Virus record (IMG/VR): IMGVR_UViG_3300044653_000098
Coordinates: 32,001 to 96,000 of that record
Reading direction: 5' to 3' (one strand)
Length of the DNA stretch: 64,000 nt
Source: a virus
This document shows positions 12,380 through 40,925 of this stretch, one piece after another. The notes under the pieces were generated by a model. It was not told the DNA's origin. It did not search any database and saw only the letters and a program-made list of their open reading frames with translations. Position 1 is the stretch's first letter. Each line of letters starts with the position of its first letter. Both the position numbers and the translations under genes were made by a program.

Positions 12380-12634
12380 TCAGCTGGGAAGCTCCCGCAC
12401 AGGCGGCGGCCGCATCGGCCCGTGGAACTGCACGCCCTCCCCGCGGAACTCCCCCGGAGGGTCGTGGTCCAGGAATGCCCCGGGAGGAAACTTCAGCGCA
12501 TGTGCGCACCCGTGTTCAGCGCAGCGTGCCTGCACCACAAAGTCCCCGTCGTCGGCCTGTCCCCATTCCCAGCCGACCAGCTGGGCATCTTCGACGTCAA
12601 AGATGGGCAGGCACTCACCCTGGCCGCTGCTCAT
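12380..12634 (-). CDS. Hypothetical protein between the fibre genes
   Basis: 84-aa ORF filling the gap; no SD seen. Confidence 0.3.
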   Translation of the reverse strand: MSSGQGECLPIFDVEDAQLVGWEWGQADDGDFVVQARCAEHGCAHALKFPPGAFLDHDPPGEFRGEGVQFHGPMRPPPVRELPS

Positions 12635-12672
12635 ACAGCCAGGGTAGGGGTCGCTGACCCGATTAACCGTGC

Positions 12673-14238
12673 ATGGCGCTCAACCAGGTTGTCCTGACGC
12701 TTGACGTTTACAACGGCGCGGGCAGCCTCGTTCAGGAGGGCTCTGCCTTCCTCACGCCGTCGAGTCCGCTGACCGACCCCACCGACCATCTCTACATCTG
12801 GCAGACGCCGATCTCTGTCTCCCTGGTGCCCCCGGAGGGCGCCGCGGAGGACTGGATGCCGACGGTCACGCTCTACAGCTGCGATAGCTCCAATCTCAGC
12901 CCGGGCGGATGGGCGTGGCAGATCAGTTTCCAGGCGCCCGGTGCGCCTCCTGGGTTCAATTTCTTCCTGAACTACTCCAACGGCGCTGACCAGTATCTGG
13001 ACGATCAGACCCCTGTCTACAGTGTGACTACGATGCAGGGGTACCTGCAGTACCCGACGGGCACGCCGTCCAACGGCAACGTCCCTACCTACGAGAGCGG
13101 CGCGATCCAGTGGGGCTCGGGCGGTGGTGGCGGGGGCATGTCGAACCCGATGACCACGCTCGGGGACATCATCGCCGGCGGGGCTTCCGGCTCTCCTGCC
13201 CGTGTGGCCGGGCCGACCGCGTCTGAGGGCGTGCTGACCAGCACACCGTCCGGCGGCGTGGCCCAGGACCCGGTCTGGACCACCCTGCAGGCCCTGCAGA
13301 ACGCGCAGGCCGGCGGCGTCACCTCCGGTGACTACCTGCGGGGCAACGGCACGAACATCCTTCTGGCCGCGCTGCAGGCTGCCGATCTGACCGGAACGGT
13401 CAGCGCTGCCCAGGGCGGCACCGGGCAGACCAGCTTGCAGGCAGCGATCAACTCCCTGGCCGGCGGTGTCACCAGCGGGGATTACCTGCGCGGGAACGGG
13501 ACTAATATCCTGCTCTCCGCGATCCAGGCAGCTGACCTGCCCACCGGCACCACCTCGGCCAAAGGCGCGCTGCAGCTCGATGGCACAGCCATCGACATCC
13601 AGCCTTTTGGCTTGGTGCCCGCGGCCGGCGGGAACGGCCTGTCCGCCGACTCCGGTCATGTCCACCCGCTGCCCGACGTCTTCTACGGCAACATGGGCTC
13701 GGTCCTGGCCTGGAACTACCCGCCGTCCCAGATCAGCACCTCCAGCGCGACCGGGGGCACACCGGGCACCAACGCGACGGTCTACTTCCTGCAGATACCG
13801 GTGGCCTATGCGAAGACCATCACTGACCTGAACTTCGGCATCGTCACCGCGGCGACAGGCACGATTACGCACGCCTATGCCGGGCTGGTGAACTCCTCCG
13901 GGCTCGTCGTGGCGGAGTCGGCGGACCGTGCCTCCGACGCCGCGCTCACCACGTCCTCGTCGCTGTGGAGCCCGCCGCTGTCCTCGACCTATGCGGCGGC
14001 GGCCGGAACCTATTATGCGTTCCTGTGGATCCTGATGGCCGGCGGTGGCTCCCCGCCCGCCATCGCCCGGTGCGCGGCCAACGGCGGCGTCACGACCCTG
14101 CTGAACCTGGGCACAGTCTCGGGTTCCTACCGGTTCAGCCAGCTCGCCAGCCAGACCGCGATCCAGACCGTCGGCAACAGCTACACGCTGACGTCGAATG
14201 CTATCTCCAGCTTCTCTGCCTGGTGCGCGCTGACGTGA
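12673..14238 (+). CDS. Second tail fibre, paralogous N- and C-terminal domains to 9119..12379
   Basis: First ~130 aa nearly identical (LTLDVY.G.G...IWQTPI.V.L.PPEGAAEDW.PTV.LYS.DS.NLSP.GWAW). Confidence 0.75.
   Translation: MALNQVVLTLDVYNGAGSLVQEGSAFLTPSSPLTDPTDHLYIWQTPISVSLVPPEGAAEDWMPTVTLYSCDSSNLSPGGWAWQISFQAPGAPPGFNFFLNYSNGADQYLDDQTPVYSVTTMQGYLQYPTGTPSNGNVPTYESGAIQWGSGGGGGGMSNPMTTLGDIIAGGASGSPARVAGPTASEGVLTSTPSGGVAQDPVWTTLQALQNAQAGGVTSGDYLRGNGTNILLAALQAADLTGTVSAAQGGTGQTSLQAAINSLAGGVTSGDYLRGNGTNILLSAIQAADLPTGTTSAKGALQLDGTAIDIQPFGLVPAAGGNGLSADSGHVHPLPDVFYGNMGSVLAWNYPPSQISTSSATGGTPGTNATVYFLQIPVAYAKTITDLNFGIVTAATGTITHAYAGLVNSSGLVVAESADRASDAALTTSSSLWSPPLSSTYAAAAGTYYAFLWILMAGGGSPPAIARCAANGGVTTLLNLGTVSGSYRFSQLASQTAIQTVGNSYTLTSNAISSFSAWCALT
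13309..13542 (+). repeat. Internal duplication in fibre 2 (AGGVTSGDYLRGNGTNILL.A.QAADL x2)
   Basis: Two 27-aa copies starting at 13309 and 13459 with synonymous divergence. Confidence 0.85.
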
Positions 14239-23687: not shown

Positions 23688-24179
23688 TCAGCGCACCCAG
23701 TAGTCGACTCCGCCGAAGCTGACCGTGGAGTAGTCGATCTTGAGTTCGTCGGCCGCCGCTTCCCAGTCGATGCAGTTGACCGGCCAGTTGGCGTCCTTGT
23801 CGATCGCGCCTATGTCGTCGGCAAGCTGTTCCGCGTACTCCTCGAAGTAGCTGTCGCGGATGAGCGTGGCCCCGTGCTTCCAGTCGCCCGCGTTGCTCTC
23901 TCCGTCGCTGGCAAGCTCGCGGAGCTGCTCCAGTTCTTCCGTCTGGTCCTCGTCCAGCCCGACCCCGTACTCCTCTGCCTGCTCGCGCAGGCTGGCCAGC
24001 TCGGCCGCCTCGTCGTCGGACACCCCTGGGTCTGTCTCCAGTGCGCGCAGTTCCGCGAGTCGGCGCTCTTGCGCTTCCAGCTCGGACAGCTCTTCGATCC
24101 GCGCGATCACGTCGCGGCTGTCAATCAGGTCCTCGTCATTGGTGATCGGTTCGGTAGCTGTGATCTCTGCCATGTCCAT
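23688..24179 (-). CDS. ArdA-like acidic antirestriction / DNA-mimic protein
   Basis: Very D/E-rich; FEEYAEQLADDIG...CIDWEAAADELKIDY resembles the ArdA C-terminal region; leader at 24181-24198. Confidence 0.65.
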   Translation of the reverse strand: MDMAEITATEPITNDEDLIDSRDVIARIEELSELEAQERRLAELRALETDPGVSDDEAAELASLREQAEEYGVGLDEDQTEELEQLRELASDGESNAGDWKHGATLIRDSYFEEYAEQLADDIGAIDKDANWPVNCIDWEAAADELKIDYSTVSFGGVDYWVR

Positions 24180-25663: not shown

Positions 25664-25716
25664 GGGCTCGGCCTCCGTTTAGTGGGCTTGGCTTCCATCA
25701 CCTATCTAAGCACATT

Positions 25717-25734
25717 GGTAGACACGTGTCAACC
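25717..25734. promoter_or_regulatory. Cassette palindrome copy 8 (TTGACA on -)
   Basis: Exact motif. Confidence 0.85.
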
Positions 25735-25814
25735 ACCTAGGGAACTCCGTAAGGCCGGAGGCAGCAAAGACCGCCCGCACCGGCAGGCACGAGCGGTCTC
25801 TAGCCTCGATGCAG

Positions 25815-26111
25815 TTATTCCGCGCGCTCGTGCACAGCCTTGGTCATGTCCGGCTCCGCGTAGGTGCCTTCGGGCAGCCCGCCCGACCGGCGCCCGGTCT
25901 TGTAGGACGCCACGTCATCCGCGTGCACGTAGAAGACCAGCGTGCCGTGCTCCGGGAAGCTAGAGCGCACGTACAGCGCCGGAGCGTCCAGCTCAGCCCC
26001 GTGTGCGTCCGTGTCCATGGCCAGAACTTCCGGCCAGCCTGTCTCCTCCGGCTGAGTCAGCTCCAGCCCATCCGCGGGACCTTCGAGCAATTCCGCAAAC
26101 ATGTCATCCAT
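25815..26111 (-). CDS. Acidic hypothetical protein
   Basis: 98 aa; GGAG SD. Confidence 0.5.
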   Translation of the reverse strand: MDDMFAELLEGPADGLELTQPEETGWPEVLAMDTDAHGAELDAPALYVRSSFPEHGTLVFYVHADDVASYKTGRRSGGLPEGTYAEPDMTKAVHERAE

Positions 26112-26309
26112 GTGATCAGCTCCATTCTCCGATGCATCTATTTTGGCAACAGGCCAAGCTCGCGCATGTCCTCCATCACCACCCCGAACGGGCTGGAGCC
26201 GTCCGGGATCGCTGCCACGCGCCTGGCGAGATCAGTCAGGTACAGCCGCACCGCAAGCGCGTAGGTCTCAGGCGTGCCATGGAATTGCCAGGGCACGCGC
26301 ACGGCCGGC

Positions 26310-26669
26310 TCATCCGTCGTTGCCATGCGCCTCCTCGTTCGTCCAGCGCGGCACGTGGGGCCCGTTGCCGGCCGGATAGCAGTGATCATCCCCGGACGTG
26401 TCGAATACGTGTCCGTCGCTCGCTAGGTGCACGTAGTCACCACAGCCGCGACAGGTCACACCAGGGAGGTGCGGGGATACCTGAATCAGGAACTGTGAGC
26501 CGGCCGCGTCGGTGTAGATGAAGGACGCGCCCGTGTTCCATTCCTCCGGCTCAGAGCATCCGCTCAGGATGAGATCTCCGCTCGACAGCTCTTGCGCTAT
26601 GTAGATCGCACGCTCCGGCTTGGCCTGTGCGTAGAACTCATCCCGCAAAGGATCATGCTGTGTCGTCAT
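26310..26669 (-). CDS. Hypothetical protein with CxxC
   Basis: Start re-assigned to MTTQHDPL. Confidence 0.5.
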   Translation of the reverse strand: MTTQHDPLRDEFYAQAKPERAIYIAQELSSGDLILSGCSEPEEWNTGASFIYTDAAGSQFLIQVSPHLPGVTCRGCGDYVHLASDGHVFDTSGDDHCYPAGNGPHVPRWTNEEAHGNDG

Positions 26670-26688
26670 CTTGCTTCCGATGCACTTC

Positions 26689-27054
26689 TCAGAAAAGCTT
26701 GGCGGGCCGGTGCAGGTTGCGGCACAGCCCGCAGCGGAACACTCCGGTTGCATAGGGCATGCCGTTGTCATGGCTGGAGTACTGCGGCTCTTGGTGCCCG
26801 GGCGTGGCGTGGCACCGCGGGCAGTAGACACCCCCGTCCGTGTCGCCTACGGGGTTGCCGGTGCCGTCACAGATCACGCCGTGCTCGTTCAGCCGGTAGG
26901 TCAGCACGAGCGCGCCGTCGGCCCCCTCTTGCAAGATCACGCCTGGCCGCTGCCACACGTGCACGAGCATGCGCAGCGCTGCACGCGGGGAGGGCAGGCC
27001 GGCCGCGGTGCGCAGCGTGGGGGAATCGTTGCGCGCTACCGCGTAGCAGATCAT
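26689..27054 (-). CDS. Zn-ribbon hypothetical protein
   Basis: CPRC...CGLC; ATGA overlap with upstream gene. Confidence 0.55.
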   Translation of the reverse strand: MICYAVARNDSPTLRTAAGLPSPRAALRMLVHVWQRPGVILQEGADGALVLTYRLNEHGVICDGTGNPVGDTDGGVYCPRCHATPGHQEPQYSSHDNGMPYATGVFRCGLCRNLHRPAKLF

Positions 27055-27458
27055 GCGGACACCGCGCGGAAGATCTCAGCGCGCTGAGCGTCCGTCCAGT
27101 CCCCTACCACGTAGACGCTTACCTCTTCCTTTTCCGTGGTGTAGTTGTCCGGCAGGCTGCAGCTCAGCCACGCATGCGCGCTCAGCTCCGCGGGCACGGG
27201 GCTTACGCTTGGCTCGTAGGCTCCGGTGCGCTGGATACGCTCCACAGCCCACGCCACGCGCGCCGCGCTCTCGCGCTTGGACGCTCCGAGGTAGCGGCGC
27301 ACGCTGTACCACGGAAGTGGCTCCGGCCCGTCAAACTCAGGATCGTAAGCTTCCGTGTCGGTGCCATGGTCCCGGATCTCGCGGGAATCGCCTTCCATCC
27401 ATTCCCCCTCTTCTGAGTAGGGGTCAATGGTGCGCCGGTAGATCTGAATTTCGTACAT
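27051..27458 (-). CDS. Hypothetical protein
   Basis: 135 aa; leader at 27463-27479. Confidence 0.7.
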   Translation of the reverse strand: MYEIQIYRRTIDPYSEEGEWMEGDSREIRDHGTDTEAYDPEFDGPEPLPWYSVRRYLGASKRESAARVAWAVERIQRTGAYEPSVSPVPAELSAHAWLSCSLPDNYTTEKEEVSVYVVGDWTDAQRAEIFRAVSA

Positions 27459-27504
27459 GCTGGCCTCCGTTTGTGGGCTTGCTGTGTCCTCATTGTCTCA
27501 TGCC

Positions 27505-27522
27505 GGTAGACACGTGTCAACC
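27505..27522. promoter_or_regulatory. Cassette palindrome copy 9 (TTGACA-N17-GACAAT on -)
   Basis: Exact motif; followed by hairpin ACGGAGCCCCG...CGGGGCTCCGT (about 27528-27563). Confidence 0.85.
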
Positions 27523-27580
27523 ACAGCACGGAGCCCCGCACCTCTGCAGGCACGGGGCTCCGTACGGGCTTAGGCGGCCC

Positions 27581-28810
27581 CTAGTCGCGGCCGGCTGTGC
27601 CCGCGGGGAGGTCATCCCACGCGGTGTGCTGAATCCTCCGGCCATCCTCGCTGATCTCATACAGCACGGTGCAGCTCCGGGCCTTGACCTTGTTGCCGAC
27701 CGGAACCATGCTCGCGTAGTCGACCGCACAGGCAAGGAAGCGCACGCCCCGCACATACTCGCGCGTGTCCTCTGCGGTAGCGCAGAAGTGCAGACCGTGT
27801 CCGCAGTGCGGCTCCGGGGTGTAGTCCTCCGCTGTGACCGTGGAGCCAATCTCATACCGGATATCGCCATGGCCGACGGGCGAGCTCAGGTCAGCTAGCA
27901 CAGCCTTGACCAGTGTCACGGTCTTGCCGTCATCGCTGAGCGTCAGGCCACGCTCAGCGAGCCAGCGTGGTCTGGCGTTGCGCGCGTCACGCTTGGCTCT
28001 CCGCTGCGCAGCCTTGAGCCGGCGGACAGCCTCCGCACGCTCGCGCGCTTCGGTCTCCAGCCGTGCTGCCTTCTCTTCTGGGGTCTCGTACAGCCGCTTG
28101 GCGTTCGGATCGATCACCATGCCGGAACTGTCCACGCGGATACCGTCATAGAAGATCGCCGGCCGTTGCTGTGAGCCGTAGTCGGCAACCTTCGAGCCGT
28201 GGCAGTTGTGGCACGTGGCCTGATGCTGGCCGGTCACACCCATGCCGCGGTGCCTGTGCCATTGGCCAACCACGCGTACGGTTTCTGGCTGATCACGGAG
28301 AGGCCAGCCATTGCGCTGTAGTGCGGTTGGCACAGGCTCATTCCAGCGCACTGCAAAGTCATATGACCATTCAGAGCATGGGTAGGTCCGGCCCTCTATT
28401 CCCCGGTAGTGGTTGGTAACCGAGTAGTCGGCCGGGTGGTAGTAGCTGACCGTGCCCCAATCGTTTACGGTGACCAGTCCCGTGCCCTTGCACGTGCGGC
28501 ACTTCTGGAGCTTGGCCGGCATGTGGGGGTCTGAGCTGTGCCACACAGCCCAGACGCCACGGTGTGAGTACACCCGCGCGGGCCCGTAGCCATTGATCCT
28601 GTCTTTGGTGGTGACGGTCTCCCACCCGCCAGTGTTCAGGGTGTACGTGCCGTCTGCATGGATGGCCACCACGTCTGTGTTGTGGAGCCGGACAGCGTAG
28701 TTGCTACCTCTCTCCACTAGATAAGTGTTGTTCTGCAGCTTGCGCCGTGGTCCGTATCCGCGGTCCTGAGCACGCGCCATCATGGTCTGTGCGTCTTGGT
28801 AGCTGAGCAT
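27581..28810 (-). CDS. Multidomain hypothetical protein with split CxxCxG Zn finger
   Basis: 409 aa; RKLQNNTYL...TGGWETVTTKDRIN; CRTCKGTG...CHNCHG; YEIGSTV...CGHGLHFC; leader at 28818-28834. Confidence 0.7.
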   Translation of the reverse strand: MLSYQDAQTMMARAQDRGYGPRRKLQNNTYLVERGSNYAVRLHNTDVVAIHADGTYTLNTGGWETVTTKDRINGYGPARVYSHRGVWAVWHSSDPHMPAKLQKCRTCKGTGLVTVNDWGTVSYYHPADYSVTNHYRGIEGRTYPCSEWSYDFAVRWNEPVPTALQRNGWPLRDQPETVRVVGQWHRHRGMGVTGQHQATCHNCHGSKVADYGSQQRPAIFYDGIRVDSSGMVIDPNAKRLYETPEEKAARLETEARERAEAVRRLKAAQRRAKRDARNARPRWLAERGLTLSDDGKTVTLVKAVLADLSSPVGHGDIRYEIGSTVTAEDYTPEPHCGHGLHFCATAEDTREYVRGVRFLACAVDYASMVPVGNKVKARSCTVLYEISEDGRRIQHTAWDDLPAGTAGRD

Positions 28811-28863
28811 TGGTGCCGCCTCCGTTTGTGGGCTTGACCTTGTGACCTCACCTTAGCATGGCT

Positions 28864-28881
28864 GGTAGACACGTGTCAACT
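28864..28881. promoter_or_regulatory. Cassette palindrome copy 10 (TTGACA-N18-TAAGGT on -)
   Basis: GGTAGACACGTGTCAACT. Confidence 0.85.
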
Positions 28882-28882
28882 A

Positions 28883-28920
28883 GAAACCTCCCGTACCCTG
28901 TGGCGGATACGGGAGGTTTC
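28883..28920. terminator. Terminator hairpin abutting the palindrome
   Basis: GAAACCTCCCGTA-loop-TACGGGAGGTTTC, 13-bp stem. Confidence 0.8.
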
Positions 28921-28937
28921 CGGGGGTGAGCTGAGAG

Positions 28938-29474
28938 CTAGTCCGGCTCACCAAGCGGGCCGGTCATGCTCAGTATGTTTGTGGTGATCTCCTGCCGCAC
29001 GCTGGCCGGTATCGCTGCGGCCGACACTAGCGCGCTGACAACCTCGCGCCATTCCGCGCGGGTGAGGTCAGCACCGAGGATGTCATCATCCGCGATTCCG
29101 AACGTGTCAGACTCCCACACGTACAGCCGGCAGTTGTCGGCTACGTAGTACGGGAAGTGTTCCGCAACCAGCCGCTCTATCGTCGCGTCCCACGCTGCAG
29201 CATCGCCGCGGTAGAGCGGCGCACTGGCACGCTTGTTATCGAACGTGGCAGCGAGGTTATACATGGTGTCCGCCTCCGCGCGGATCTTCCATGCGTCCTC
29301 ATACTGGCCGGCGTCCGCGTAGCTGACCGCGGTGTCTCCTGCCTGATCGGCCGACTCGCTCAGCATGCGGCGCACCTCGTCGGCAACGTCGCGCCACGTG
29401 GTGGCCACGCTGAAATTGTCGTCGCTAGCTTCGGGCCCGTATCCGGGCAGTCCGTAGGCAAGGATCATGCGCAT
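28938..29474 (-). CDS. Acidic hypothetical protein
   Basis: 178 aa; GGGAGG SD. Confidence 0.65.
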   Translation of the reverse strand: MRMILAYGLPGYGPEASDDNFSVATTWRDVADEVRRMLSESADQAGDTAVSYADAGQYEDAWKIRAEADTMYNLAATFDNKRASAPLYRGDAAAWDATIERLVAEHFPYYVADNCRLYVWESDTFGIADDDILGADLTRAEWREVVSALVSAAAIPASVRQEITTNILSMTGPLGEPD

Positions 29475-29479
29475 GGCGG

Positions 29480-29662
29480 TTACCTCCCCTGCCTGATCAG
29501 GTATCCGAAGCCGGCCGCGTCGCGCTGGTCAGCGCGGAATGCGGCACGCTGCAGACTGGCACGCCGGCGGGCACGCTGCATGCGGCCGGCCTTGACGGCC
29601 AGGCGTTCAGCCAGCGGCGCACGCGGAGCCGCGTGGCGTGGGGTGGGGTTGGTGTCGTTCAT
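29480..29662 (-). CDS. Small basic hypothetical protein
   Basis: MNDTNPTP... after leader at 29670-29687. Confidence 0.55.
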   Translation of the reverse strand: MNDTNPTPRHAAPRAPLAERLAVKAGRMQRARRRASLQRAAFRADQRDAAGFGYLIRQGR

Positions 29663-29714
29663 TGTTCTAGCCTCCGTTTGGTGGGCTTGCTTACAGGTCA
29701 ATCCTCGCACGGAC

Positions 29715-29732
29715 GGTAGACACGTGTCAACC
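29715..29732. promoter_or_regulatory. Cassette palindrome copy 11, bidirectional
   Basis: TAGACA-N18-TAGTCT on +, TTGACA-N18-GAGGAT on -; mirror-image leaders at 29670-29687 and 29756-29773. Confidence 0.9.
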
Positions 29733-29780
29733 TCTCGTGCTAGTCTGATCTCATCAGCCCACCAAACGGAGGCACCCAAA

Positions 29781-29993
29781 ATGTTCAATCTCTACGTATG
29801 GGAAGGCGTCCTAGCAGGCTGGTCAAGCGGCATGGCTGTGGCGATCGGCCGCACGCAGGATGAGGCCATAGCCACGCTTGACCGCCTCACGCCTAAAGAT
29901 GTGCGTGAGCTGCAGAAGGAAACCCCGGAGGTTATCCCGTTGCGTGCCCGTGGCATGACGCCTAGAGGCTGGTACCTCTACGGGGGAGACTAA
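29781..29993 (+). CDS. Hypothetical protein (70 aa, MFNLYVWEGVL...)
   Basis: Starts after the conserved leader. Confidence 0.65.
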   Translation: MFNLYVWEGVLAGWSSGMAVAIGRTQDEAIATLDRLTPKDVRELQKETPEVIPLRARGMTPRGWYLYGGD

Positions 29994-30024
29994 GGGAACC
30001 CCGTAAGGCCGTTCACACGCGCCG

Positions 30025-30639
30025 ATGTGTGCGAGCGTGCCTGTTGTCGACTCGGCGGATATCTCCGATCTTCCGCCGGCGTTGCGGCCGCGTAAGGCCA
30101 GCGTGCCCGACGCGCTCTCTGATCTGCCCGTCGGGTTCAACGTGCTGCATGAGCCACGGCCGGCCGCTCAGCGCGCGGAGGCTGCACCGCTAGTTGTCCA
30201 GTGCTATCACTGTGCGCGCATCCGCCACAGCAAGTGTGCGCGCATTGCCGGAACGGGCCCGTGCCTGTGCTACCAATGCCACAGATTTAAGATCATTGCC
30301 GACGCTGAGTCAGCGCTCACCTCGCGTGACGCGCGGCGTTTGGCCGAATCGCTGCAGCTAACTCTGATCTTGCTAGCGCAGCGCATAGGCCGTGAGCCTA
30401 AAGACAATCCCGACCCCTATCCTCCTCGCGCTTGCGCGTGCGGCTGTGGCCGGCTCGTCTACAGCTCATCCCGCGGAGGCGCACGGAAGAAATACGCTCG
30501 CAAGTCATGCCTCAAGGCGGCCGACGCGCGACGTTCCCGGGCCCGCAAGCGAGAAGGGAAAACGGGCACGTTCGTGCTTATCTCCGCGTTCGATGCAGAT
30601 GGTTTCCCCCTGCCTGGCATGGTGGCTCCGCCGGCCTAG
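30025..30639 (+). CDS. Cys-rich Zn-binding hypothetical protein
   Basis: CYHC, CLCYQC, CACGCGR...KYARKSC. Confidence 0.5.
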   Translation: MCASVPVVDSADISDLPPALRPRKASVPDALSDLPVGFNVLHEPRPAAQRAEAAPLVVQCYHCARIRHSKCARIAGTGPCLCYQCHRFKIIADAESALTSRDARRLAESLQLTLILLAQRIGREPKDNPDPYPPRACACGCGRLVYSSSRGGARKKYARKSCLKAADARRSRARKREGKTGTFVLISAFDADGFPLPGMVAPPA

Positions 30640-30675
30640 GCGGGCCCTAGGCCCGGACGGTATGCCACGATGCAC

Positions 30676-30984
30676 TTATTTTGTGAGGTGCGCGTAGGGG
30701 TCTTGACCTTCTGGGTAGATCACCCATGGCTCGTCTGGGCCAGCCTCCCCGTAGCACGTGCCTAGCGGGTGGGGGGTCTCGTTATCCGCTATGGCCAGGA
30801 AAGCATCACGGTCGAATCCGGGTAGCAAGTTCTCAAGATCATAAGAGACTTGCTCCATGAAAGCTCCGGCTATCCGCGCGCAATCGTCGGTTGGCTCCAT
30901 GCCCATATCGATCATCTGCCGGTACATTTCGCTCATGCGCCGTGCGAGCGTTCCGGTAAGGCTGTCTGTGCTCATGGTCATCAC
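30676..30984 (-). CDS. Hypothetical protein
   Basis: GAGGAG SD; PGFDRDAFL echoes the F.PDRF motif of 21236..21784. Confidence 0.55.
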   Translation of the reverse strand: MMTMSTDSLTGTLARRMSEMYRQMIDMGMEPTDDCARIAGAFMEQVSYDLENLLPGFDRDAFLAIADNETPHPLGTCYGEAGPDEPWVIYPEGQDPYAHLTK

Positions 30985-31046
30985 TCCTCACCAATCCACG
31001 GCTATCCAGCAGATAGCCTCTCCGGACGGTGTGGGCACGGTGTCAG

Positions 31047-31994
31047 TCATGAGAGCGCGCCAATCTGGTAACCGAGGCGGGCAGTGAATGCGCGCATGCC
31101 GTCAAGATCCCCGGTGCAGCGGGGATCGGCTGTGGCAATCGAGAGCGTGAGCGCTCCCCATACCATCCACAGCTCAGCGAGCGACAGCACCCATGGCTGC
31201 GGGTTGCTGAGCTTGCCGTGGAGCGAGCGGAGCCGCGCGGAGTTAGCTTCCGTCGCGCCGGCGTTCTCAAGCTCGCTCAGCGCGTTCTCTGCGGCATCCT
31301 GAGCCATGGCACGCTCAGCGCTCGTGAGCAGTCCGGCCGGCCGCGGGTAGGTCTCTATCGGCCGTTGCTCTCCGTTGACGAACTGAAAATGATCTCCCGC
31401 GTACTCAGCCGACCACACGCGCTCGCGGTCCGCTTCCCGTGCCCACAGCTCAGACGCCATGAGCGCGGCTGAGTCAAAGTCAATCCCTGCGTACTGCTGC
31501 AGCGCTTGCGCTATCTGACACCAGCACGCGCACGTTCCCGCGTGCACAGGATTACCGCAGCTCTGGCACCAATCCGGAGCGCCGCGCGAGCGGAGCCATG
31601 CATCTACCGCGTCCGTAACCGCATTGGCCATGTCCGTTTCAGCGTCGCTGAACATCACCTCGCTCAGCTCATCCCCGCGCGGCTGGTAGCCGTCTAGCGC
31701 TGTGATCACGTATTCGTTGGCGTCCACATGATCATGCAGCTCAGCAAACGAGCGCGCGGTGTCCGGGATGACGCCGGCCGCTATGTCCTCCGTGATCATG
31801 CGCTGCACCTCTGTGGCGTAGCGCTGAATATCGGCCGGCTGTGGCACTATCGCTAGCGCATCCTTGTGCTCTGCCGACCGTAGGCAGTTCCCGCACGTGA
31901 CGTCAGACCATGCTGCGGTGTAGACGCAACGGTGCGCCGGCATGTGGCACGGTGACCAGGATGCGCCCGGTTGCCTGTAATGGGTCTTGCTCAT
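31047..31994 (-). CDS. Multidomain hypothetical protein
   Basis: MSKTHY after leader 32002-32018; VTCGNC; SFAELHDHVDANEY; CQSC. Confidence 0.7.
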   Translation of the reverse strand: MSKTHYRQPGASWSPCHMPAHRCVYTAAWSDVTCGNCLRSAEHKDALAIVPQPADIQRYATEVQRMITEDIAAGVIPDTARSFAELHDHVDANEYVITALDGYQPRGDELSEVMFSDAETDMANAVTDAVDAWLRSRGAPDWCQSCGNPVHAGTCACWCQIAQALQQYAGIDFDSAALMASELWAREADRERVWSAEYAGDHFQFVNGEQRPIETYPRPAGLLTSAERAMAQDAAENALSELENAGATEANSARLRSLHGKLSNPQPWVLSLAELWMVWGALTLSIATADPRCTGDLDGMRAFTARLGYQIGALS

Positions 31995-32043
31995 CTCGCT
32001 AGCCTCCGTTTGTGGGCTGTGGAGTCTCCACCGTACCATGCAC

Positions 32044-32061
32044 GGTTGACACGTGTCTACT
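32044..32061. promoter_or_regulatory. Cassette palindrome copy 12 (TAGACA-N18-TACGGT on -)
   Basis: GGTTGACACGTGTCTACT; followed by hairpin AGACCCCCGGA-N5-TCCGGGGGTCT (32069-32095). Confidence 0.85.
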
Positions 32062-32114
32062 CAGCACAAGACCCCCGGAGGCTATCCGGGGGTCTGTGTG
32101 GGCTTGGTTGTGGC

Positions 32115-32645
32115 CTAGTGGTTGTTCCCCTCGTCATACAGCCACGTGCCGCACATACGCTCATCACGGCAGATTGCCGACCCGTAGACCTCCGTTTTCC
32201 AGCCGGCCACGAGCTGAGCGAACTCAAGGTCAAGGCTGATCAGCACTATGTCTTGGGCACCATCGGCCGTCCAGTCATACACGGTGTAGGTCACCACGCC
32301 GGCGTCTTGCGCGCGGAGCCATGCGTTGCCGGCCGGAATCGCGGCGAACATCGGCGCGCACTCTGAGAAGTCCTCCGCAAGCTCAGCCTCCGCTGCTTCT
32401 ACGCGAGCACGGTCGGCTGTCGGGTCGTACATTCGGTTCCCAAAGTGTGAGAGCGGTGCATGGATCGGTTCGTCAAGCTCTCCAGCCTCCGCGGCGTCCA
32501 TAGCTGCGCTAATGGCGGCCGAGTTGCGCTGCAGCTCATCCTGCAACTGTGCGGCCGCGCGCTTGGCTACGGCGATCTTCTGTTCCGGGGACAGCTCCCC
32601 AAACCTCTTGCCGGCCGGCCACGCTGTGGGATCGTTCGGGTCCAT
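32115..32645 (-). CDS. Hypothetical protein
   Basis: MDPNDPTAW after leader 32654-32671. Confidence 0.65.
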   Translation of the reverse strand: MDPNDPTAWPAGKRFGELSPEQKIAVAKRAAAQLQDELQRNSAAISAAMDAAEAGELDEPIHAPLSHFGNRMYDPTADRARVEAAEAELAEDFSECAPMFAAIPAGNAWLRAQDAGVVTYTVYDWTADGAQDIVLISLDLEFAQLVAGWKTEVYGSAICRDERMCGTWLYDEGNNH

Positions 32646-32696
32646 TGCTCTGTGCCTCCGTTTGGTGGGCTGTGGAGACTCCATAGTCGCATGCGG

Positions 32697-32714
32697 GGTA
32701 GACACGTGTCAACC
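32697..32714. promoter_or_regulatory. Cassette palindrome copy 13, bidirectional
   Basis: TAGACA-N18-TAGACT on +, TTGACA-N18-GACTAT on -; leaders on both sides. Confidence 0.9.
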
Positions 32715-32771
32715 AGACACGCTAGACTCATCCCACGATGCACAGCCCACCAAACGGAGGCAAAGACTCAG

Positions 32772-33101
32772 ATGGCAAACATCAAATCTCATGACGGCCA
32801 GGCGCACATGAGCGCCACCTACAGCAAGCCGGAAGAGACGGCCAGCCTCACCACAGACGGCAAGACGCACCTGACGCTGACCGTCACCACAGACGGCCGC
32901 TTGCTGCGCAAGACAGCTCACCGTTTCCGCTCATCACAGCGCAAGTGCGGCTACCGGCTCAGCAGCACGGATTACCGCCTCGTGACCAAGGTCAGGGTGC
33001 ATCCTTCCCGCCTCACAGAGGAATACCGGCCGCAGCTCCGCGCTGATCTGGCAGCCATAGCGGCACGGTGGGGGTATGCCCCCGACCACACGGAAGCCTG
33101 A
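32772..33101 (+). CDS. Basic hypothetical protein
   Basis: MANIKSH after leader 32744-32761. Confidence 0.65.
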   Translation: MANIKSHDGQAHMSATYSKPEETASLTTDGKTHLTLTVTTDGRLLRKTAHRFRSSQRKCGYRLSSTDYRLVTKVRVHPSRLTEEYRPQLRADLAAIAARWGYAPDHTEA

Positions 33102-33143
33102 GCACGCCCACAGACGCACGTGCTGTTAGCTCAGCTCCCAAAA

Positions 33144-33183
33144 TACGGGCCGGAGGAAAAGCACAGCTAGCCTCCGGCCCGTA
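33144..33183. terminator. Hairpin after 32772..33101
   Basis: TACGGGCCGGAGG-loop-CCTCCGGCCCGTA. Confidence 0.65.
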
Positions 33184-33240
33184 CTCATGCGCCTAGGTGT
33201 CTCCACAGCAATCCGCGCACAAGAGCTAGCTCAGCTCTCC

Positions 33241-33350
33241 AGCCCCGCACAGCCGCTCGCGTGGCCTCCGTCCCGGGCGTGCCTGTGGGCATGATGTAGA
33301 GCCGTTATGCACCCATAGCCACAGCCCGCTAGTAGCGTCTGCGCGGGGCT
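33241..33350 (+). ncRNA. Candidate structured RNA in a 350-bp intergenic gap
   Basis: Outer 17-nt stem with 2 mismatches, nested stems with G-U pairs. Confidence 0.35.
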
Positions 33351-33455
33351 GAGCTTAACGGAGACAGCCGTACAGCCCTACCCGTATGTAATCGGGTAGG
33401 GCAAACGGCAGAATCGCTCTCAGGGCCGTACAGCTACAAGCGCTGCAGCCATGCG

Positions 33456-34670
33456 TCATCTATCGCGGCGTCCGTCTTGCGGTGCTTGCCTTCCCGCGTG
33501 CCGCGCCTTCATGCCGGCCTCCCACCTGTCCAGAGCGGACAGCACGTCAGCCTGTGCAGTGAGGCTGAGTGTCGCGGTGTAGACGAGTCCGTCAATGACT
33601 ACGAGTGTCAGGCTGACATAGCACTGCGGGCACACGGGCATGTCCCCGCCACACAACTCGCTGTAGGCGGTCAGTGTGCCATCACACGGGGCTGAGCAGT
33701 TCTCACAGCTCACAAGCTCAGCCGGCGCGGTGTAGGGGTGACCCTGCCATGGTGAGTCCGGCCGGTGCGCGTTACGGCCGCACGTGGTGCAGCGCTTGGA
33801 GTTGTGAGCCCCGGACACGTCATCCTTGGCCGGCTGTGCCGTGTCCTCACGCACGGGGCGGAGGTTCGGCCACGTGTAGCCAAGCGCGTAGTGGTCGGCA
33901 CTGTGCCCGTCGGTGAAACTGCAGGTCAGACCCGGCATTCCGGGGTGCATGGACGGGCACGGCTGAGCGTTCGCGCTGGTCCGCTCTTCCGCCGGCTCGT
34001 GCCGTTCCGTGCACGGGATCACCGCTATGGAGTCCCCATCGCTGTAGTGCCGCAGCTCTTCGTGGTAGTGCAGCTCGTGCCGCTCGCTGATCTCGTCTAT
34101 GAGCGCGTTCGTGTCGGCTAGCTCCCGCGCGTCATCGGCCGGCAGCACCTCTAGCGGCTGGTCAGTGTCGTGGGGTCCGTTCATGCCCCGCGCGTCACAC
34201 AGCCACGTGCGCTCGTACTCCACGTACACCAGACGCCACGTGCCTCCGGGGGTCATGCGGAACACTGGCCGGTGACAGTAGCTGCAGGTTCCCTCTTCCG
34301 GCTTCTCAGCTCCCACAACCACAGCAGCCTGAGCGTGCCCGCGTACGCGCGCCTCTTCCGGGCTGGTCACCATGGCTAGCAGCTCATCCGCTACGTGGCC
34401 GGTCTCCGCCATGCGCACGCGCTTGCCTGAGTCCGTCAGCACGTTGCCGTTGTCCTCGTGTCCGGGGCTGAGCGCTTCCGCTGCGGCTGTGGGCACGTAG
34501 AACACCTGCAGCTCAGGGTGAGCCGTGCCAAAGATTCCAGCAAGCTCATAAGCCTGATCCCACGTGCCCGCGTAGTTCGCCGCGCGCTGGAACCGGTTGG
34601 CTGTGGGCTTGCGGTAGGCGATCGTCCATGTGGCTATGGTGCGACTCTCGTGCGTGTTGGTGCTGGTCAT
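33456..34670 (-). CDS. Multidomain protein with several Cys/His (Zn) modules
   Basis: MTSTNTH after leader 34675-34691; CSYC, CTTC, CENC, CPQC. Confidence 0.7.
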   Translation of the reverse strand: MTSTNTHESRTIATWTIAYRKPTANRFQRAANYAGTWDQAYELAGIFGTAHPELQVFYVPTAAAEALSPGHEDNGNVLTDSGKRVRMAETGHVADELLAMVTSPEEARVRGHAQAAVVVGAEKPEEGTCSYCHRPVFRMTPGGTWRLVYVEYERTWLCDARGMNGPHDTDQPLEVLPADDARELADTNALIDEISERHELHYHEELRHYSDGDSIAVIPCTERHEPAEERTSANAQPCPSMHPGMPGLTCSFTDGHSADHYALGYTWPNLRPVREDTAQPAKDDVSGAHNSKRCTTCGRNAHRPDSPWQGHPYTAPAELVSCENCSAPCDGTLTAYSELCGGDMPVCPQCYVSLTLVVIDGLVYTATLSLTAQADVLSALDRWEAGMKARHAGRQAPQDGRRDR

Positions 34671-34724
34671 CTGTGCCTCCGTTTGCTGGGCAGTTGGGTC
34701 AACCATGCTCAGGCTTTCAATGGA

Positions 34725-34740
34725 GTAGACCTGTGTCTAC
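34725..34740. promoter_or_regulatory. Variant cassette palindrome
   Basis: GTAGACCTGTGTCTAC upstream of the last cassette. Confidence 0.55.
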
Positions 34741-35253
34741 CCGTTCAGCTCCCATTGTTATCAACCTGTAACCTACCCAAACGATCAGCCTCCGTTTATC
34801 GCCAGGCGCGCTACCAGCCATGACTTACCATCCGCCGGCTAGCCCAGTACCCAAATAGATGGGTACAGCCTCCGTTTAGCTCAGCCGTTCCCATACCTCG
34901 ATAGTCCCACCCAATGGGACACCCCCCGCGCCAACCGCTGCAGCTCCCCTGTGCCCGTGCCGCACAGCTCCCCGTGCGCAGCTCTCAGCGCCACGCACAG
35001 CCGCTCACAGCCCCTGCCCTGTGTCAGCACATGGCCAGCACCGCAGCGTGCCTCTCAGCCCCGCGGGCACACAGCTCAGCTCGGCCGGTCAGCTCAGCTC
35101 CCCGCGGCCGTCCGTTCGGCTGCCCCCGTTGCCGGCTAGGCCCCCGCCCCCGCCGTGCCCGCCCCCCGTCGTGCGGGGCGATGAGGGTTAGGAGTCCCGT
35201 TCCTCCGCCCCCGCACTGACCGGCGCCTTCCATTAACAGATGCACCCGCACAC

Positions 35254-35475
35254 GTCACAGCACATCACCCGTCCCTGCGGAGCCCAGGGTTTGATGGCCT
35301 GGGGAAGTGATTGTGATGTGTGATGGGGCCCCCTGACCTGTGATAACTCCAGGAAAGGTGGTCACAGTGATGTACCGCATCACTCATGTGCCCGGATGAT
35401 GTCACATGCCGCTGACCTGGGCGCATCACTATCTTGTGATGGAGGACATCACAGCTGCCGCCAAGTGGTGTGATC
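35254..35475. repeat. GTGAT/ATCAC repeat cluster
   Basis: 11 copies in both orientations within about 215 bp of non-coding DNA, plus two CTGACCTG. Confidence 0.75.
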
Positions 35476-35769
35476 TGGCGCCTGGCCGGTAATAATGGCA
35501 GGGCGTGCCCCGGGGAGCCTGCGGAACGATGATCAGCGTCCTCGTTCCGGCCAGGACCGTTACCCCCCGGGGCCGCCCCGCCAGCGAAACGGAAGGCGGA
35601 GGCCCATGAACGTAGCTAGCAAGGTGCCGGAGCGGCCGCAGCCGCCAGCTGCACCGGGCGGATATCACCAGGAAGCTGCGCCTGATAGTGCGTGGCGGGT
35701 GATCGGGGGGCTTGCCACGATCGGGAGCAAGCGGTGCCGGGCAGGCGCGACGCGGAACAAGCGGGCGGG

Positions 35770-36363
35770 ATGAGCCGCAGGCGCCGCAGGCGCCGCAGGA
35801 GGTTCCAGGCGGGCTGGCTGAGCTGGGCGGTGCCGCTGGCCGGGGGTGTGTGGATCTGGACGTCCCTGCACGATCCTGGACGCCAGGCGGGCATGTGGAC
35901 GATCGAGGGCGCCGCGGTGCTGGCCTGGCCGCTGGCGCTGACCGCGGCGTTCTACGTGCTGCCCGCGACTGCGATGTCTGCGGTACCGAGGGGGCTGCGC
36001 AAATGGTGGCGCCGGAGCTACACCGCGCGGCCGGCGATTCCGCTGTTCATCCGCCGGGCTGTGATGTACGCCGACGCGCACCGCTGTGTGCACTGCGGGG
36101 AGTGGCTGGACCTGCAGCTGGACCACGTCTTCCCCTGGAGCCTCGGCGGCCTGAGCGTGCTGTTCAACCTGATGGTGCTGTGCGGGACGTGCAACCGCGT
36201 GAAGTCCAACTACTGGCGGTTCCGCTCGGGGCATGAGATCTACCGGGCGTTCGACAACGCTGACAACATCCGGATGGCCCGGGAGATCCTGAGGTCGGAG
36301 AAGCTGGCGAGGATCAGCCCGCTGCGGTGGTACCGGGCTTCGCTCGCGCTAGGGGTGATCTAG
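35770..36363 (+). CDS. HNH endonuclease with N-terminal hydrophobic (membrane) segments
   Basis: CVHCG...LQLDHVFPWSLGG...NLMVLCGTCNRVKSN; two hydrophobic stretches after a poly-Arg start. Confidence 0.85.
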   Translation: MSRRRRRRRRRFQAGWLSWAVPLAGGVWIWTSLHDPGRQAGMWTIEGAAVLAWPLALTAAFYVLPATAMSAVPRGLRKWWRRSYTARPAIPLFIRRAVMYADAHRCVHCGEWLDLQLDHVFPWSLGGLSVLFNLMVLCGTCNRVKSNYWRFRSGHEIYRAFDNADNIRMAREILRSEKLARISPLRWYRASLALGVI

Positions 36364-39185: not shown

Positions 39186-40925
39186 CTACTGGGTCAGCCA
39201 GAGACGGTGCGCCGCGCGGTGCGTGGCGAACGCGTCGCTTGCCGCATCCCCCGTGCTGGCGAGAGCTGAGCCGTACTCCCTCAGGCTCTCGATGAACGCC
39301 GGGTGGATGTGCTCGTCCGTCATCCCGTCAGCGGCCGCCTGGACTGCTTTGCCGATCACGCTGGGCAGCTCGGCCATCCGCTTAGCCCACTGGTCCAGGT
39401 CGTCGCCGCTGGTGGGATGGAACGTGGCAATGTGGTCGTGGACGGCCTCCTCGACCGCATCAAGGTTTCCTGACATAGGGCCTCCTCTAGTTGATGGTGC
39501 TCGCTGCCTGCGCACCTGCGGTGCTTGCAGCCGGGGTGCCGGAGCGGGGGCCGACCTTGGTGCTCCCTGCGGGGAAGCTGGTGCCGGAGCGGGGTTTGGC
39601 TTGCTCTGGCGCTCCTGCTCCCGCCTGGCGCGCTCGCGCTCTCTCCGTTCCTCCCTCATCCGCTTGTTCCAGACCTCCTGCCAGCGGCGGCCAAGCTGAG
39701 CGCCGCTGAGCAGACCTGGAATCCGGCGCTGCCGGGGTTCTCCCAGCCGCGGGACCGGGCGCCATTTGCCTGGAGCCCAGTTGCCTTTGCCCTGGACTTT
39801 GCGCAGCTTGCGCCTGCGGTGCAGCTGGCGCAGTCCTGCAGCCAGGGCGATGGGAGCCAGAATCCGGTCCCGCCACCGTGGCCGCTGGCTGCGGATGTGC
39901 TGGCGCAGGGCTCTTCGCTGAGCCCTGGTCTGCTTGCGCAGTGTCCTGCGGCGCTGCCCGCGCAGCCGCCGGCCGTGGCCTTTGGCTCCAGGACCCCACT
40001 GAACCTGCGGGCCGCCTGCGGGACGGACCGCCCCTGGCTGCCGCCGCCGGAGCCTGGCCGGGACGAGCTTTCGCAGTCTCCTGCGTGCCCGCCCAGGCTT
40101 AGGCGTGCTGCCTGTCGGGATGCCCGGAGGCCGTCCGCCAGCTGGCCGCAGACCGCGGCGTCCGCGCACCCGCGGGCGGCTGCCCGTGCCTGGCCGTGCG
40201 CCTGAGCCTCCAGCAGTCCGGGGACGGTGCGGGATGAACCGCCTGATGCCCCCTCGCGGACGGCTGGCGGTACCCGGGCGCCGCCCGCCTCCTGGGCGCC
40301 CGCCCGCCGGGCGTGAGCCCGCTGGACGGTGTGGCCGGTGCGGCAGGAACCTCCGCATGCCACGACGTGGGCCGCCCGCACCGGTTCCTGTGCCGGAGCG
40401 CCGTCGACCCGCGCCCGGACCAGTTCCCGAACGGCGCCTTCCGCTCCCCAGACCGCCGCCTGGGGACATAGTGCGCCTGCGCGAGCGCCCGGACGATCCG
40501 GAAGCGCCTGACCCGGAGCGCCTGCCCCGTCCCAGGCCCAGACCGCCGCGCCCTGATCCGCCGCCGGATCTCCGGCCTCCGCCCGCACTGCCGCGCGAGC
40601 GGCCGCCTCCGCCGAGCCTCGGCAGTACCCTCCCGCCCGAGGACCGGCTGCTTGAGCGCCGCTCCCTGCGGGACGAGCTGCCCGGAGGCCGTGCGAAGTG
40701 CTTCCGGATACGCGGGTACTGCCAGATTCCGGCTGCCCCGGTCCCGGCTGCCCCGGTCCCGGCCGCTGCCATCTCCACCGGGCCTGCGCCGAAACCGTGG
40801 ACAGCTCCGACCACGGCCGCGATGCCTCCCAGCAGATAGAGAATCGGCCTGCGGCCCCGGACATGCCCCGGGCGTTCCTGCGGGCCTGCACGCGGCTCTT
40901 CATCGAGGGTCTCTTCATCAGCCAC
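39186..40925 (-). CDS. TraA-like protein: TM helix, long Arg/Gly-rich tract, helical C-terminal domain
   Basis: AGGAGG SD, overlaps upstream stop, immediately upstream of traB as in actinomycete plasmid tra operons. Confidence 0.55.
   Translation of the reverse strand: MADEETLDEEPRAGPQERPGHVRGRRPILYLLGGIAAVVGAVHGFGAGPVEMAAAGTGAAGTGAAGIWQYPRIRKHFARPPGSSSRRERRSSSRSSGGRVLPRLGGGGRSRGSAGGGRRSGGGSGRGGLGLGRGRRSGSGASGSSGRSRRRTMSPGGGLGSGRRRSGTGPGAGRRRSGTGTGAGGPRRGMRRFLPHRPHRPAGSRPAGGRPGGGRRPGTASRPRGGIRRFIPHRPRTAGGSGARPGTGSRPRVRGRRGLRPAGGRPPGIPTGSTPKPGRARRRLRKLVPARLRRRQPGAVRPAGGPQVQWGPGAKGHGRRLRGQRRRTLRKQTRAQRRALRQHIRSQRPRWRDRILAPIALAAGLRQLHRRRKLRKVQGKGNWAPGKWRPVPRLGEPRQRRIPGLLSGAQLGRRWQEVWNKRMREERRERERARREQERQSKPNPAPAPASPQGAPRSAPAPAPRLQAPQVRRQRAPSTRGGPMSGNLDAVEEAVHDHIATFHPTSGDDLDQWAKRMAELPSVIGKAVQAAADGMTDEHIHPAFIESLREYGSALASTGDAASDAFATHRAAHRLWLTQ

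Follow-up and report, generated by a model that had tools for sequence, protein, structure and literature searches.

What has removed the tetranucleotide TCGA from, and multiplied CTAG in, one segment of the genome of a large siphophage of an actinobacterium? The segment lies at about 25.7-35.2 kb of the window, the stretch of 64,000 nucleotides analyzed here, which comprises bases 32,001-96,000 of the virus contig G000 (141,724 bp); positions given without a prefix refer to the window. An earlier note on this DNA interpreted the two biases as the imprint of restriction avoidance in an arm of the genome that would end near 35 kb and enter the host cell first. It is not the palindrome TCGA as such that is avoided; its absence is a by-product of the avoidance of the triplets TCG and CGA. 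The reading that we favor, which in our judgment is about evenly balanced between being right and being wrong, is that the segment is a discrete, fast-turnover island with a compositional signature of its own, a site of exchange with a pool of gene cassettes, where both the TCGA deficit and the CTAG surplus are by-products.

The counts that raise the question hold. TCGA is absent between the flanking sites at 31,139 and 34,898, and the resulting gap of 3,759 bp is the longest in the whole 141.5-kb genome; the six sites previously noticed near 23,700-24,100 are also there (23,704-24,094). The surplus of CTAG, put at about 30 against about 6, amounts to 34 occurrences in 25.7-35.2 kb and 7 in 1-14 kb, and the density in the former segment is about five times that elsewhere. 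Among all tetranucleotides in 25.7-35.2 kb, TCGA is the most depleted one (14 against 47.1 expected from its density elsewhere in the genome) and CTAG is the most enriched one (34 against 6.5). The TCGA deficit survives synonymous-codon shuffling, with 9 occurrences in the island against 19.0 expected (P ~5e-4), or 10 against 18.8 with a refined gene set (P = 0.004); the ratio of observed to expected counts (O/E) in reference genes is 0.98. The second-longest TCGA gap of the genome, 3,467 bp at G000 10,445-13,912, indicates that local composition can produce long gaps of this kind. This stretch, which is outside the window, has a G+C content of 0.70-0.72, and its TCG+CGA counts are low as well.

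The compositional domain claimed earlier is genuine and sharply bounded, with an end at about 35.25 kb, according to sliding counts, tetranucleotide z-scores (TETRA) and the log-likelihood ratio (LLR) of an order-3 Markov model. Across approximately 25-35.5 kb, sliding counts of TCG+CGA are halved and those of CCAG+CTGG are down about 3-fold, whereas CTA+TAG is doubled and CACA+TGTG is up 3-fold. The trinucleotides of the island range from CGA/TCG, the lowest (0.56x), to CTA/TAG, the highest (2.24x); TCA/TGA and CAA/TTG are enriched, and the other CpG-containing triplets are not depleted (ACG/CGT 1.33x, GCG/CGC 1.08x). The TETRA profile of the island shows no correlation with that of the remaining genome (r = -0.01), compared to r of 0.55-0.87 for random 9.2-kb chunks, and the island is the only region with a positive LLR in 141 kb. 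By the same measure, the island ends abruptly on the right, near 35,250, and fades gradually on the left, between 25.5 and 27.0 kb. The G+C content drops from 67% in the backbone to 63-64% in the island, and the G+C content of third codon positions (GC3) is 0.66-0.81 in most of the island genes versus 0.85-0.92 outside, with A-ending codons up 2-19-fold and C-ending codons down. The tRNA set of the phage itself was considered as the cause of the A-ending codons and rejected, because these tRNAs do not match the enriched codons. The possibility of a dispersed motif with a strand bias, of the Chi type, was rejected for the island as well; GC and AT skew merely track gene orientation.

The avoided unit is smaller than the tetranucleotide. 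The apparent purge of TCGA as the core of the SalI, XhoI and ClaI sites is not specific, given that TCG is avoided whatever the next base and CGA whatever the preceding one. Under codon shuffling, the O/E in the island is 0.48 for TCGA, 0.38 for ATCG, 0.41 for TTCG, 0.49 for TCGC, 0.54 for CGAC and 0.60 for CGAG, and the values for the same tetranucleotides in backbone genes are near 1. The bias is most readily traced at codon junctions. Among the NTY codons of the island (Y, pyrimidine), a fraction of 0.88 ends in C when the first base of the next codon is not G, compared to 0.51 when that codon begins with G[CGT] and 0.40 when it begins with GA; the latter two values do not differ significantly (P = 0.45), so that the avoidance is independent of the full TCGA site. 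For the N[ACG]Y codons, the corresponding fractions are 0.82, 0.77 and 0.53, and the difference between GA and non-G contexts is highly significant (P = 1.5e-12). No such specificity is found at the codon junctions of backbone genes. Thus, the earlier perception that synonymous codons are picked so that TCGA does not arise is borne out by the codon-junction test, and the two examples given for it are indeed in frame in minus-strand genes (ATT GAC TTT GAC in the gene at 31047-31994 and CTT GAC CTT GAG in the gene at 32115-32645); the lack of TCGA results from separate avoidance of the two complementary triplets, TCG and CGA, at these junctions.

The surplus of CTAG has a similarly indirect origin. 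In and around the island, 14 of the CTAGs consist of a CTA leucine codon followed by G, and several are TAG stop codons after C; the remaining ones belong to -10 boxes (TAGNCT), to the GGAGGCTAG spacers that follow Shine-Dalgarno sequences, or to other stretches between genes. The CTA codon is used about 7 times more often in the island than in the backbone (6.6 versus 0.9 per 1000 codons), and the O/E of CTAG is 0.89 in the island versus 0.51 elsewhere, which indicates that the island lost the usual avoidance of CTAG rather than gained a motif. CTAG is therefore common owing to the use of CTA for leucine, to its presence in -10 boxes and post-Shine-Dalgarno spacers, and to the lack of the backbone type of CTAG avoidance.

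The signature is conserved in a relative even where the genes are not. The IMG/VR contig G001 (132.5 kb) is colinear with G000 at 80-95% nucleotide identity and carries the same island at its 94-104 kb, with a TETRA correlation of 0.76 to the G000 island. The codon-junction bias is reproduced in G001, including genes that lack a full ortholog in G000, and DNA specific to G001 scores +35 to +67 LLR per kb inside its island and -28 to -79 outside. Turnover in the island is fast: 7 of the 14 genes have no G001 ortholog, nucleotide identity between the two contigs is 73-85% in most island segments versus 87-95% in the flanks, and the synonymous divergence (dS) of most island orthologs is 0.39-0.96 versus 0.05-0.45 in the flanks, with two short island genes at 0.04. 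An 82%-identical homolog contig (L014) was discarded as independent evidence because it is a strain variant of the same phage. In five distant relatives reached via the FtsK-like gene, no such domain is found beside that gene; neither the island nor the tail region had a megablast match among 50,697 phage records; and an IMG/VR search for related loci with the 404-aa and 409-aa island proteins also came back without a match, so that G001 was reached only via the FtsK-like neighbor.

The 9.5 kb of the island are occupied by 14 genes, 11 of which are transcribed leftward (Table 1), and the gene calls agree with those of an independent assembly. As proposed earlier, these are small genes behind host-type promoters: most are preceded by a TTGACA-N17/18-TANNNT promoter inside an 18-bp palindrome, together with a standard leader. 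In addition to the copy at the left edge, this 18-bp element is present in the island at 27505, 28864, 29715, 32044 and 32697. The same element drives cassettes of normal composition at 14.8-25.2 kb, and the cassettes with this promoter at 17.6-25.7 kb show no TCGA avoidance (37 of 40 NT-pyrimidine codons before GA end in C), so that neither promoter class nor early timing alone explains the bias. At the right border, the cassette leader AAACGGAGGC is found in three tandem minus-strand copies within 200 bp (34675, 34788 and 34868; span 34675-34877), of which only the innermost one precedes a long open reading frame (ORF) and the others precede ORFs of 27-34 codons. Exactly where the signature stops (~35,250), there is a cluster (35,254-35,480) that consists of GTGATG-N5-CATCAC dyads at 35367-35383 and 35436-35452 and about 10 GTGAT/ATCAC half-sites. 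This cluster could be an array of protein-binding sites; an element akin to the injection stop signal is one candidate, and a TraB-loading site or a replication origin would be just as possible.

Table 1. Features of the compositional island and its surroundings (window positions unless G000 is indicated).
Feature	Position	Strand	Remarks
Compositional island	25750..35250	.	sliding counts, Markov LLR, TETRA
TCGA-free stretch	31140..34897	.	3,759 bp between flanking sites
18-bp palindromic promoter element	25717..25736	.	TTGACA / TAGACA arms; left island edge
98-aa ORFan, first island gene	25815..26111	-	no G001 ortholog
62-aa ORFan	26138..26326	-	
121-aa ORFan	26689..27054	-	no G001 ortholog
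135-aa ORFan	27051..27458	-	no G001 ortholog
409-aa protein with DUF7666	27581..28810	-	
178-aa ORFan	28938..29474	-	
60-aa ORFan	29480..29662	-	behind divergent promoter at 29.7 kb
70-aa ORFan	29781..29993	+	plus-strand side of 29.7-kb divergent promoter
204-aa ORFan	30025..30639	+	gene call also in independent assembly
99-aa ORFan	30676..30975	-	no G001 ortholog
315-aa ORFan	31047..31994	-	holds last TCGA before gap (31,139)
176-aa ORFan	32115..32645	-	no G001 ortholog
109-aa ORFan	32772..33101	+	44% aa identity to G001 counterpart
404-aa protein	33456..34670	-	N-terminal ~110-aa domain PHROG 11310/26559, largely replaced in G001
Non-coding border, ~1 kb	34671..35733	.	G+C-rich repeats, three tandem cassette leaders
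HNH endonuclease gene	35734..36363	+	just outside island, backbone composition, GC3 0.92
Tail genes	1-14 kb		
Array of small genes	14.8-35 kb		
HNH gene, then FtsK/DUF2637 module	35.7-43.7 kb		
Helicase, DnaB, DNA polymerase	46-63 kb		
tRNA genes (n=30)	G000 120-124 kb		
Large terminase	G000 128.0-130.0 kb		
Portal gene	G000 131.7 kb		

Homologs of two island proteins are found in mobile elements of different kinds. The N-terminal domain of the 404-aa protein has a homolog in L007, a 110-kb related phage contig with a GC content of 0.45, within a CTAG-rich stretch of 0.53 GC at the contig end. The intergenic DNA of L007 beside this homolog (780-1060 and 2556-2915) holds up to 12 CTAG per kb, many of them as CCTAGG/CTAGG. 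A 248-aa homolog of the same domain (10001-10747) is encoded in plasmid-like or integrative and conjugative element-like contigs (L010-L013), about 800 bp from an ArdC-like gene and near genes for a TrwC relaxase and a coupling protein, which suggests a gene family of leading regions. The domain is also present in an early right-arm gene, in the right-end early operon, of Mycobacterium phage Catdawg, and phiCbK-like Caulobacter phages encode homologs of the N-terminal part of the 409-aa protein within their terminal repeats.

The locus between the tail and replication genes (25.75-35.25 kb) holds about 14 small, mostly ORFan genes that turn over rapidly, and in these genes codons with a final T take the place of those with a final C when G follows, most of all when GA follows. 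Under the favored reading of an exchanging island, the signature would be a property of the locus, or of the exchanging cassette pool, rather than of one imported gene. The pool may be common to phages and plasmids of the same hosts, with different backbone G+C, and the island genes would act early, probably in host takeover or anti-defense. Several observations weigh against this reading. A search for donors yielded no correlation of the island signature with L007, the plasmid-like contigs, the Mildred21 repeat or the T5 repeat (r from -0.11 to 0.27), and an exchange pool by itself leaves the avoidance of TCG and CGA in particular unexplained. The only close relative compared is G001, which shares ancestry with G000. 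Searches of all island ORFs against Pfam and PHROGs gave only DUF7666 and PHROGs without a function, and Foldseek comparison of the modeled N-terminal domain of the 404-aa protein to PDB gave no match at E <= 0.001, so that no function was assigned to this protein; the underlying AlphaFold model is of moderate confidence (predicted local distance difference test score, pLDDT, 66.5). Finally, some palindromes are depleted in the island only: CCWGG (W, A or T; 8 occurrences versus 27.7 expected), CAGCTG (0 versus 3.3-11.5) and GGCGCC (1 versus 5.1). A PDB sequence search with the 404-aa protein was likewise without a match, and an ArdA-like label given to neighboring acidic proteins was not reproduced by Pfam for the two that were scanned.

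These missing sites lead to the question of how restriction avoidance is distributed over the genome. The clearest purge is genome-wide and not specific to the island: GAGCTC (SacI), CTCGAG (XhoI) and AGGCCT (StuI) occur 0, 1 and 0 times in the whole backbone, against 71, 66 and 45 expected, and under codon shuffling of 74 kb of backbone genes each has 0 occurrences against 37.6, 32.4 and 24.5 expected (94.5 in total). The island shares this purge (1 occurrence of the three sites together against 9.2 expected under codon shuffling) and hence the pressure from hosts that shaped the backbone has acted on the island, too. These three sites are typical of Streptomyces enzymes, and their purge hints at a Streptomyces-like host. 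ATGCAT is rare too, with 1 occurrence against 19 expected. Outside the island, the O/E for CCWGG, CAGCTG, GGCGCC and TCGA is approximately 0.9-1.0; CAGCTG is missing from the island of G001 as well. However, general avoidance of palindromes in the island is rejected, given that the O/E of hexanucleotide palindromes is 0.96 there and 0.81 in the rest of the genome; the non-palindromic CCCGGC and CCTCAG are depleted in the island as strongly as the palindromes.

The depletion of CCWGG, CAGCTG, GGCGCC and TCGA in the island only is what a first-entry model would predict. The strongest alternative, possible but rather unlikely in our view, is that the island is a collapsed long direct terminal repeat of about 9.5 kb, a counterpart of the first-step-transfer DNA of phage T5 and of the 11-kb repeats in BE1 phages of Streptomyces. 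Then, 25.75 and ~35.3 kb would be physical genome ends, the block would enter first and be read by the host RNA polymerase, and its composition would result from selection on DNA that is exposed to defenses before protective functions act; such selection would explain why some sites are missing from the island alone and others are purged genome-wide. The island layout, with leftward cassettes followed by a 1-kb repeat-rich non-coding border and the HNH gene, is consistent with this possibility and, along with the size, matches the left repeat of T5 (10,219 bp), where most of the pre-early genes are leftward, some are divergent, and the inner injection-stop region is a 1-kb non-coding segment. 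It also matches the 10,818-bp repeat of Mildred21, which has 21 small leftward genes with gaps of about 120 bp and an HNH gene at the inner end (PMC5764925). Both repeats are compositional outliers in their own genomes (r = 0.44 versus 0.77-0.86 for Mildred21 and 0.35 versus at least 0.58 for T5). The homologs of island genes in the phiCbK-like repeats and in the Catdawg early operon point in the same direction, and restriction sites in T5-like phages and Autographiviridae have been found to matter only in the DNA that enters first (PMC10644984, PMC12455610). The large terminase is ambiguous: the closest match is that of Microbacterium phage Magritte (45% aa identity), whose record opens with a start codon and lacks a terminal repeat, suggestive of circular permutation, but the next closest are the BE1 phages (31%), which have 11-kb repeats.

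Several further observations speak against a terminal repeat or are neutral. The strongest signal in the island is a non-palindromic triplet, palindromes as a class are not depleted, with 1 of the 15 most depleted hexanucleotides being palindromic, and TCGA is enriched rather than depleted in the Mildred21 repeat. None of the three assemblies, G000, G001 and an independent 22.8-kb Logan contig of this phage (SRR19747157), has a contig end at an edge of the island, and all three read through the 35-kb junction; a collapsed long terminal repeat would give the same read-through. The packaging genes are about 60 kb away from this junction. A 183-bp overlap, with a single mismatch, joins the two ends of G000 (1-183 and 141542-141724), which makes the assembly circular, with a unit of 141,541 bp and arbitrary contig ends; this self-overlap fits a collapsed repeat or circular permutation alike, and the IMG/VR entry lists the contig as linear and 100% complete. 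A tblastn search with the FtsK-like protein against cultured phages gave distant matches only and is uninformative on genome ends. The argument that the arm must be read before the methyltransferase acts does not require an order of entry, because progeny DNA would already be methylated before packaging. A bolder version of the terminal-repeat proposal, more speculative still, is that this is a new T5-like actinobacterial phage in which the collapsed repeat enters first and the avoidance of TCG/CGA, CCWGG and CAGCTG records defenses or modification-dependent nucleases that act on first-entering DNA only, including an undescribed system that reads a 3-bp element.

An improbable explanation is local context-specific mutation that would remove CpG in the TCG/CGA context, for example through cytosine methylation and deamination or through a deaminase acting on densely transcribed DNA, thereby turning NTC|G into NTT|G and NNC|GA into NNT|GA. 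The synonymous replacements correspond exactly to conversion of the C in TCG and in CGA to T, there is an excess of TCA/TGA and CAA/TTG, synonymous divergence in the island is raised, and the phage encodes a C5 cytosine methyltransferase, all as this model would have it. However, a methyltransferase would act genome-wide, yet the bias ends sharply at 35.25 kb and is absent from the equally transcribed cassettes with the same promoter; moreover, the ACG/CGT and GCG/CGC triplets are not depleted, and many of the differences in the signature are unrelated to CpG.

Less credible still is the literal purge of the TCGA palindrome, the core of the TaqI, SalI, XhoI and ClaI sites, as an escape of this arm from TCGA-containing restriction systems, although the longest TCGA-free stretch of the genome, the codon-aware depletion and the in-frame codon examples all appear to speak for it. 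A maximal-order Markov model, which accounts for the sub-words, predicts 11.1 TCGAs in the island against the 14 observed (O/E 1.26, compared to 1.34 in the rest of the genome); Markov-2 simulations with the island triplets give a mean count of 11.0 and a probability of 0.086 for a gap of at least 3,759 bp, so that the gap is unremarkable. Avoidance is equal for TCG[CGT] and [ACG]CGA; the genome as a whole already lacks CTCGAG, whereas GTCGAC is abundant in the backbone, with 87 occurrences. The sub-word expectation, the gap simulations and the codon-junction test together refute this explanation in its literal form. Chance, wrong gene calls or codon usage alone are very unlikely explanations: not all calls of short ORFs are certain and the choice of the stretch was post hoc, but independent gene calls agree, the P values are 1e-6 to 1e-12, the bias is replicated in G001, and the island is the sole LLR-positive region in 141 kb.

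The surroundings of the island put its lineage specificity in perspective. The closest named phage is Magritte, with 35% aa identity in the polymerase, and in its genome the tail genes directly adjoin the helicase gene, with no counterpart of the array or the island, so that the whole small-gene array is lineage-specific. Between the FtsK-like and DUF2637 genes, a 420-aa gene (39656-40918, minus strand) has a ratio of nonsynonymous to synonymous divergence (dN/dS) of 1.13 between G000 and G001, at 58% aa identity, and its neighbors are at about 0.3. The match to the C5 cytosine methyltransferase family PF00145 (49963-50508) covers the first half of the model only, and within the same stretch, on the opposite strand, ARAGORN predicts a tRNA-Gly(ccc) (50320-50389).

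In phages and plasmids, anti-defense genes concentrate in early-gene and first-entry regions, and composition offers an inexpensive means of locating them in genomes of uncultured origin. Here, it delimits a 9.5-kb block of 14 uncharacterized genes to within a few hundred bases. The same test flags the experimentally defined T5 and BE1 repeats and, if general, might allow pre-early regions, and possibly also termini, to be inferred from assemblies alone. At the same time, a missing restriction site can mislead, as is the case here, where the underlying signal is a triplet-level bias at codon junctions.

Among the known systems, the left repeat of T5 and BF23 resembles the island: in both cases, small genes fill about 10 kb, host-type promoters drive most of them toward the outer edge, a few are divergent, an HNH gene is nearby, the inner border of about 1 kb is non-coding and rich in repeats, and the block is a tetranucleotide outlier in its own genome. 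The differences are that a terminal position and two-step injection would be hypothetical for the island; that no homologs of A1, A2 or dmp were seen in the island; and that its dominant bias is in the TCG/CGA triplet, not in recognizable restriction sites, in a phage of an actinobacterium. The BE1 phages, represented by Mildred21, share with G000 the related large terminase, a genome size of about 130-140 kb and large tRNA sets, and the Mildred21 repeat resembles the island in its small leftward genes (~21), their spacing, the HNH gene at the inner end and its divergent composition. The direct terminal repeats of Streptomyces cluster BE1 are 10.8-11.5 kb long (PMC5764925). In contrast to G000, with a 67% G+C backbone and a poorer island, BE1 phages have a backbone of 48-50% G+C and a richer repeat (55%); the Mildred21 repeat has an excess of TCGA, the genomes are not colinear outside the blocks, and no homologous genes were found between the two blocks. 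Mildred21 has no GATC whatsoever in the 61 kb examined.

The leading regions of conjugative plasmids and the early-injected regions of Autographiviridae are dense in anti-defense genes and are the first DNA to be expressed. Like the island, they are variable, and a homolog of the 404-aa protein's N-terminal domain lies beside ArdC and relaxase genes in the plasmid-like contigs. Compositional differences have been reported for leading regions (PMC13478746, PMC11541004, PMC12455610); in the plasmid study, leading regions were richer in G+C and better adapted in codon usage, and palindromes were not consistently depleted, whereas the codon usage of the island is less host-like. Horizontally acquired genomic islands, finally, have in common with this island an atypical signature and codon usage, a sharp edge next to a homing-type HNH gene and absence from distant relatives. 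Unlike those, however, this island shares the backbone purge of GAGCTC, CTCGAG and AGGCCT and uses the promoter and leader modules of the backbone, and the non-homologous replacements in G001 bear the same signature. Given these three features, the island is not a single recent import.

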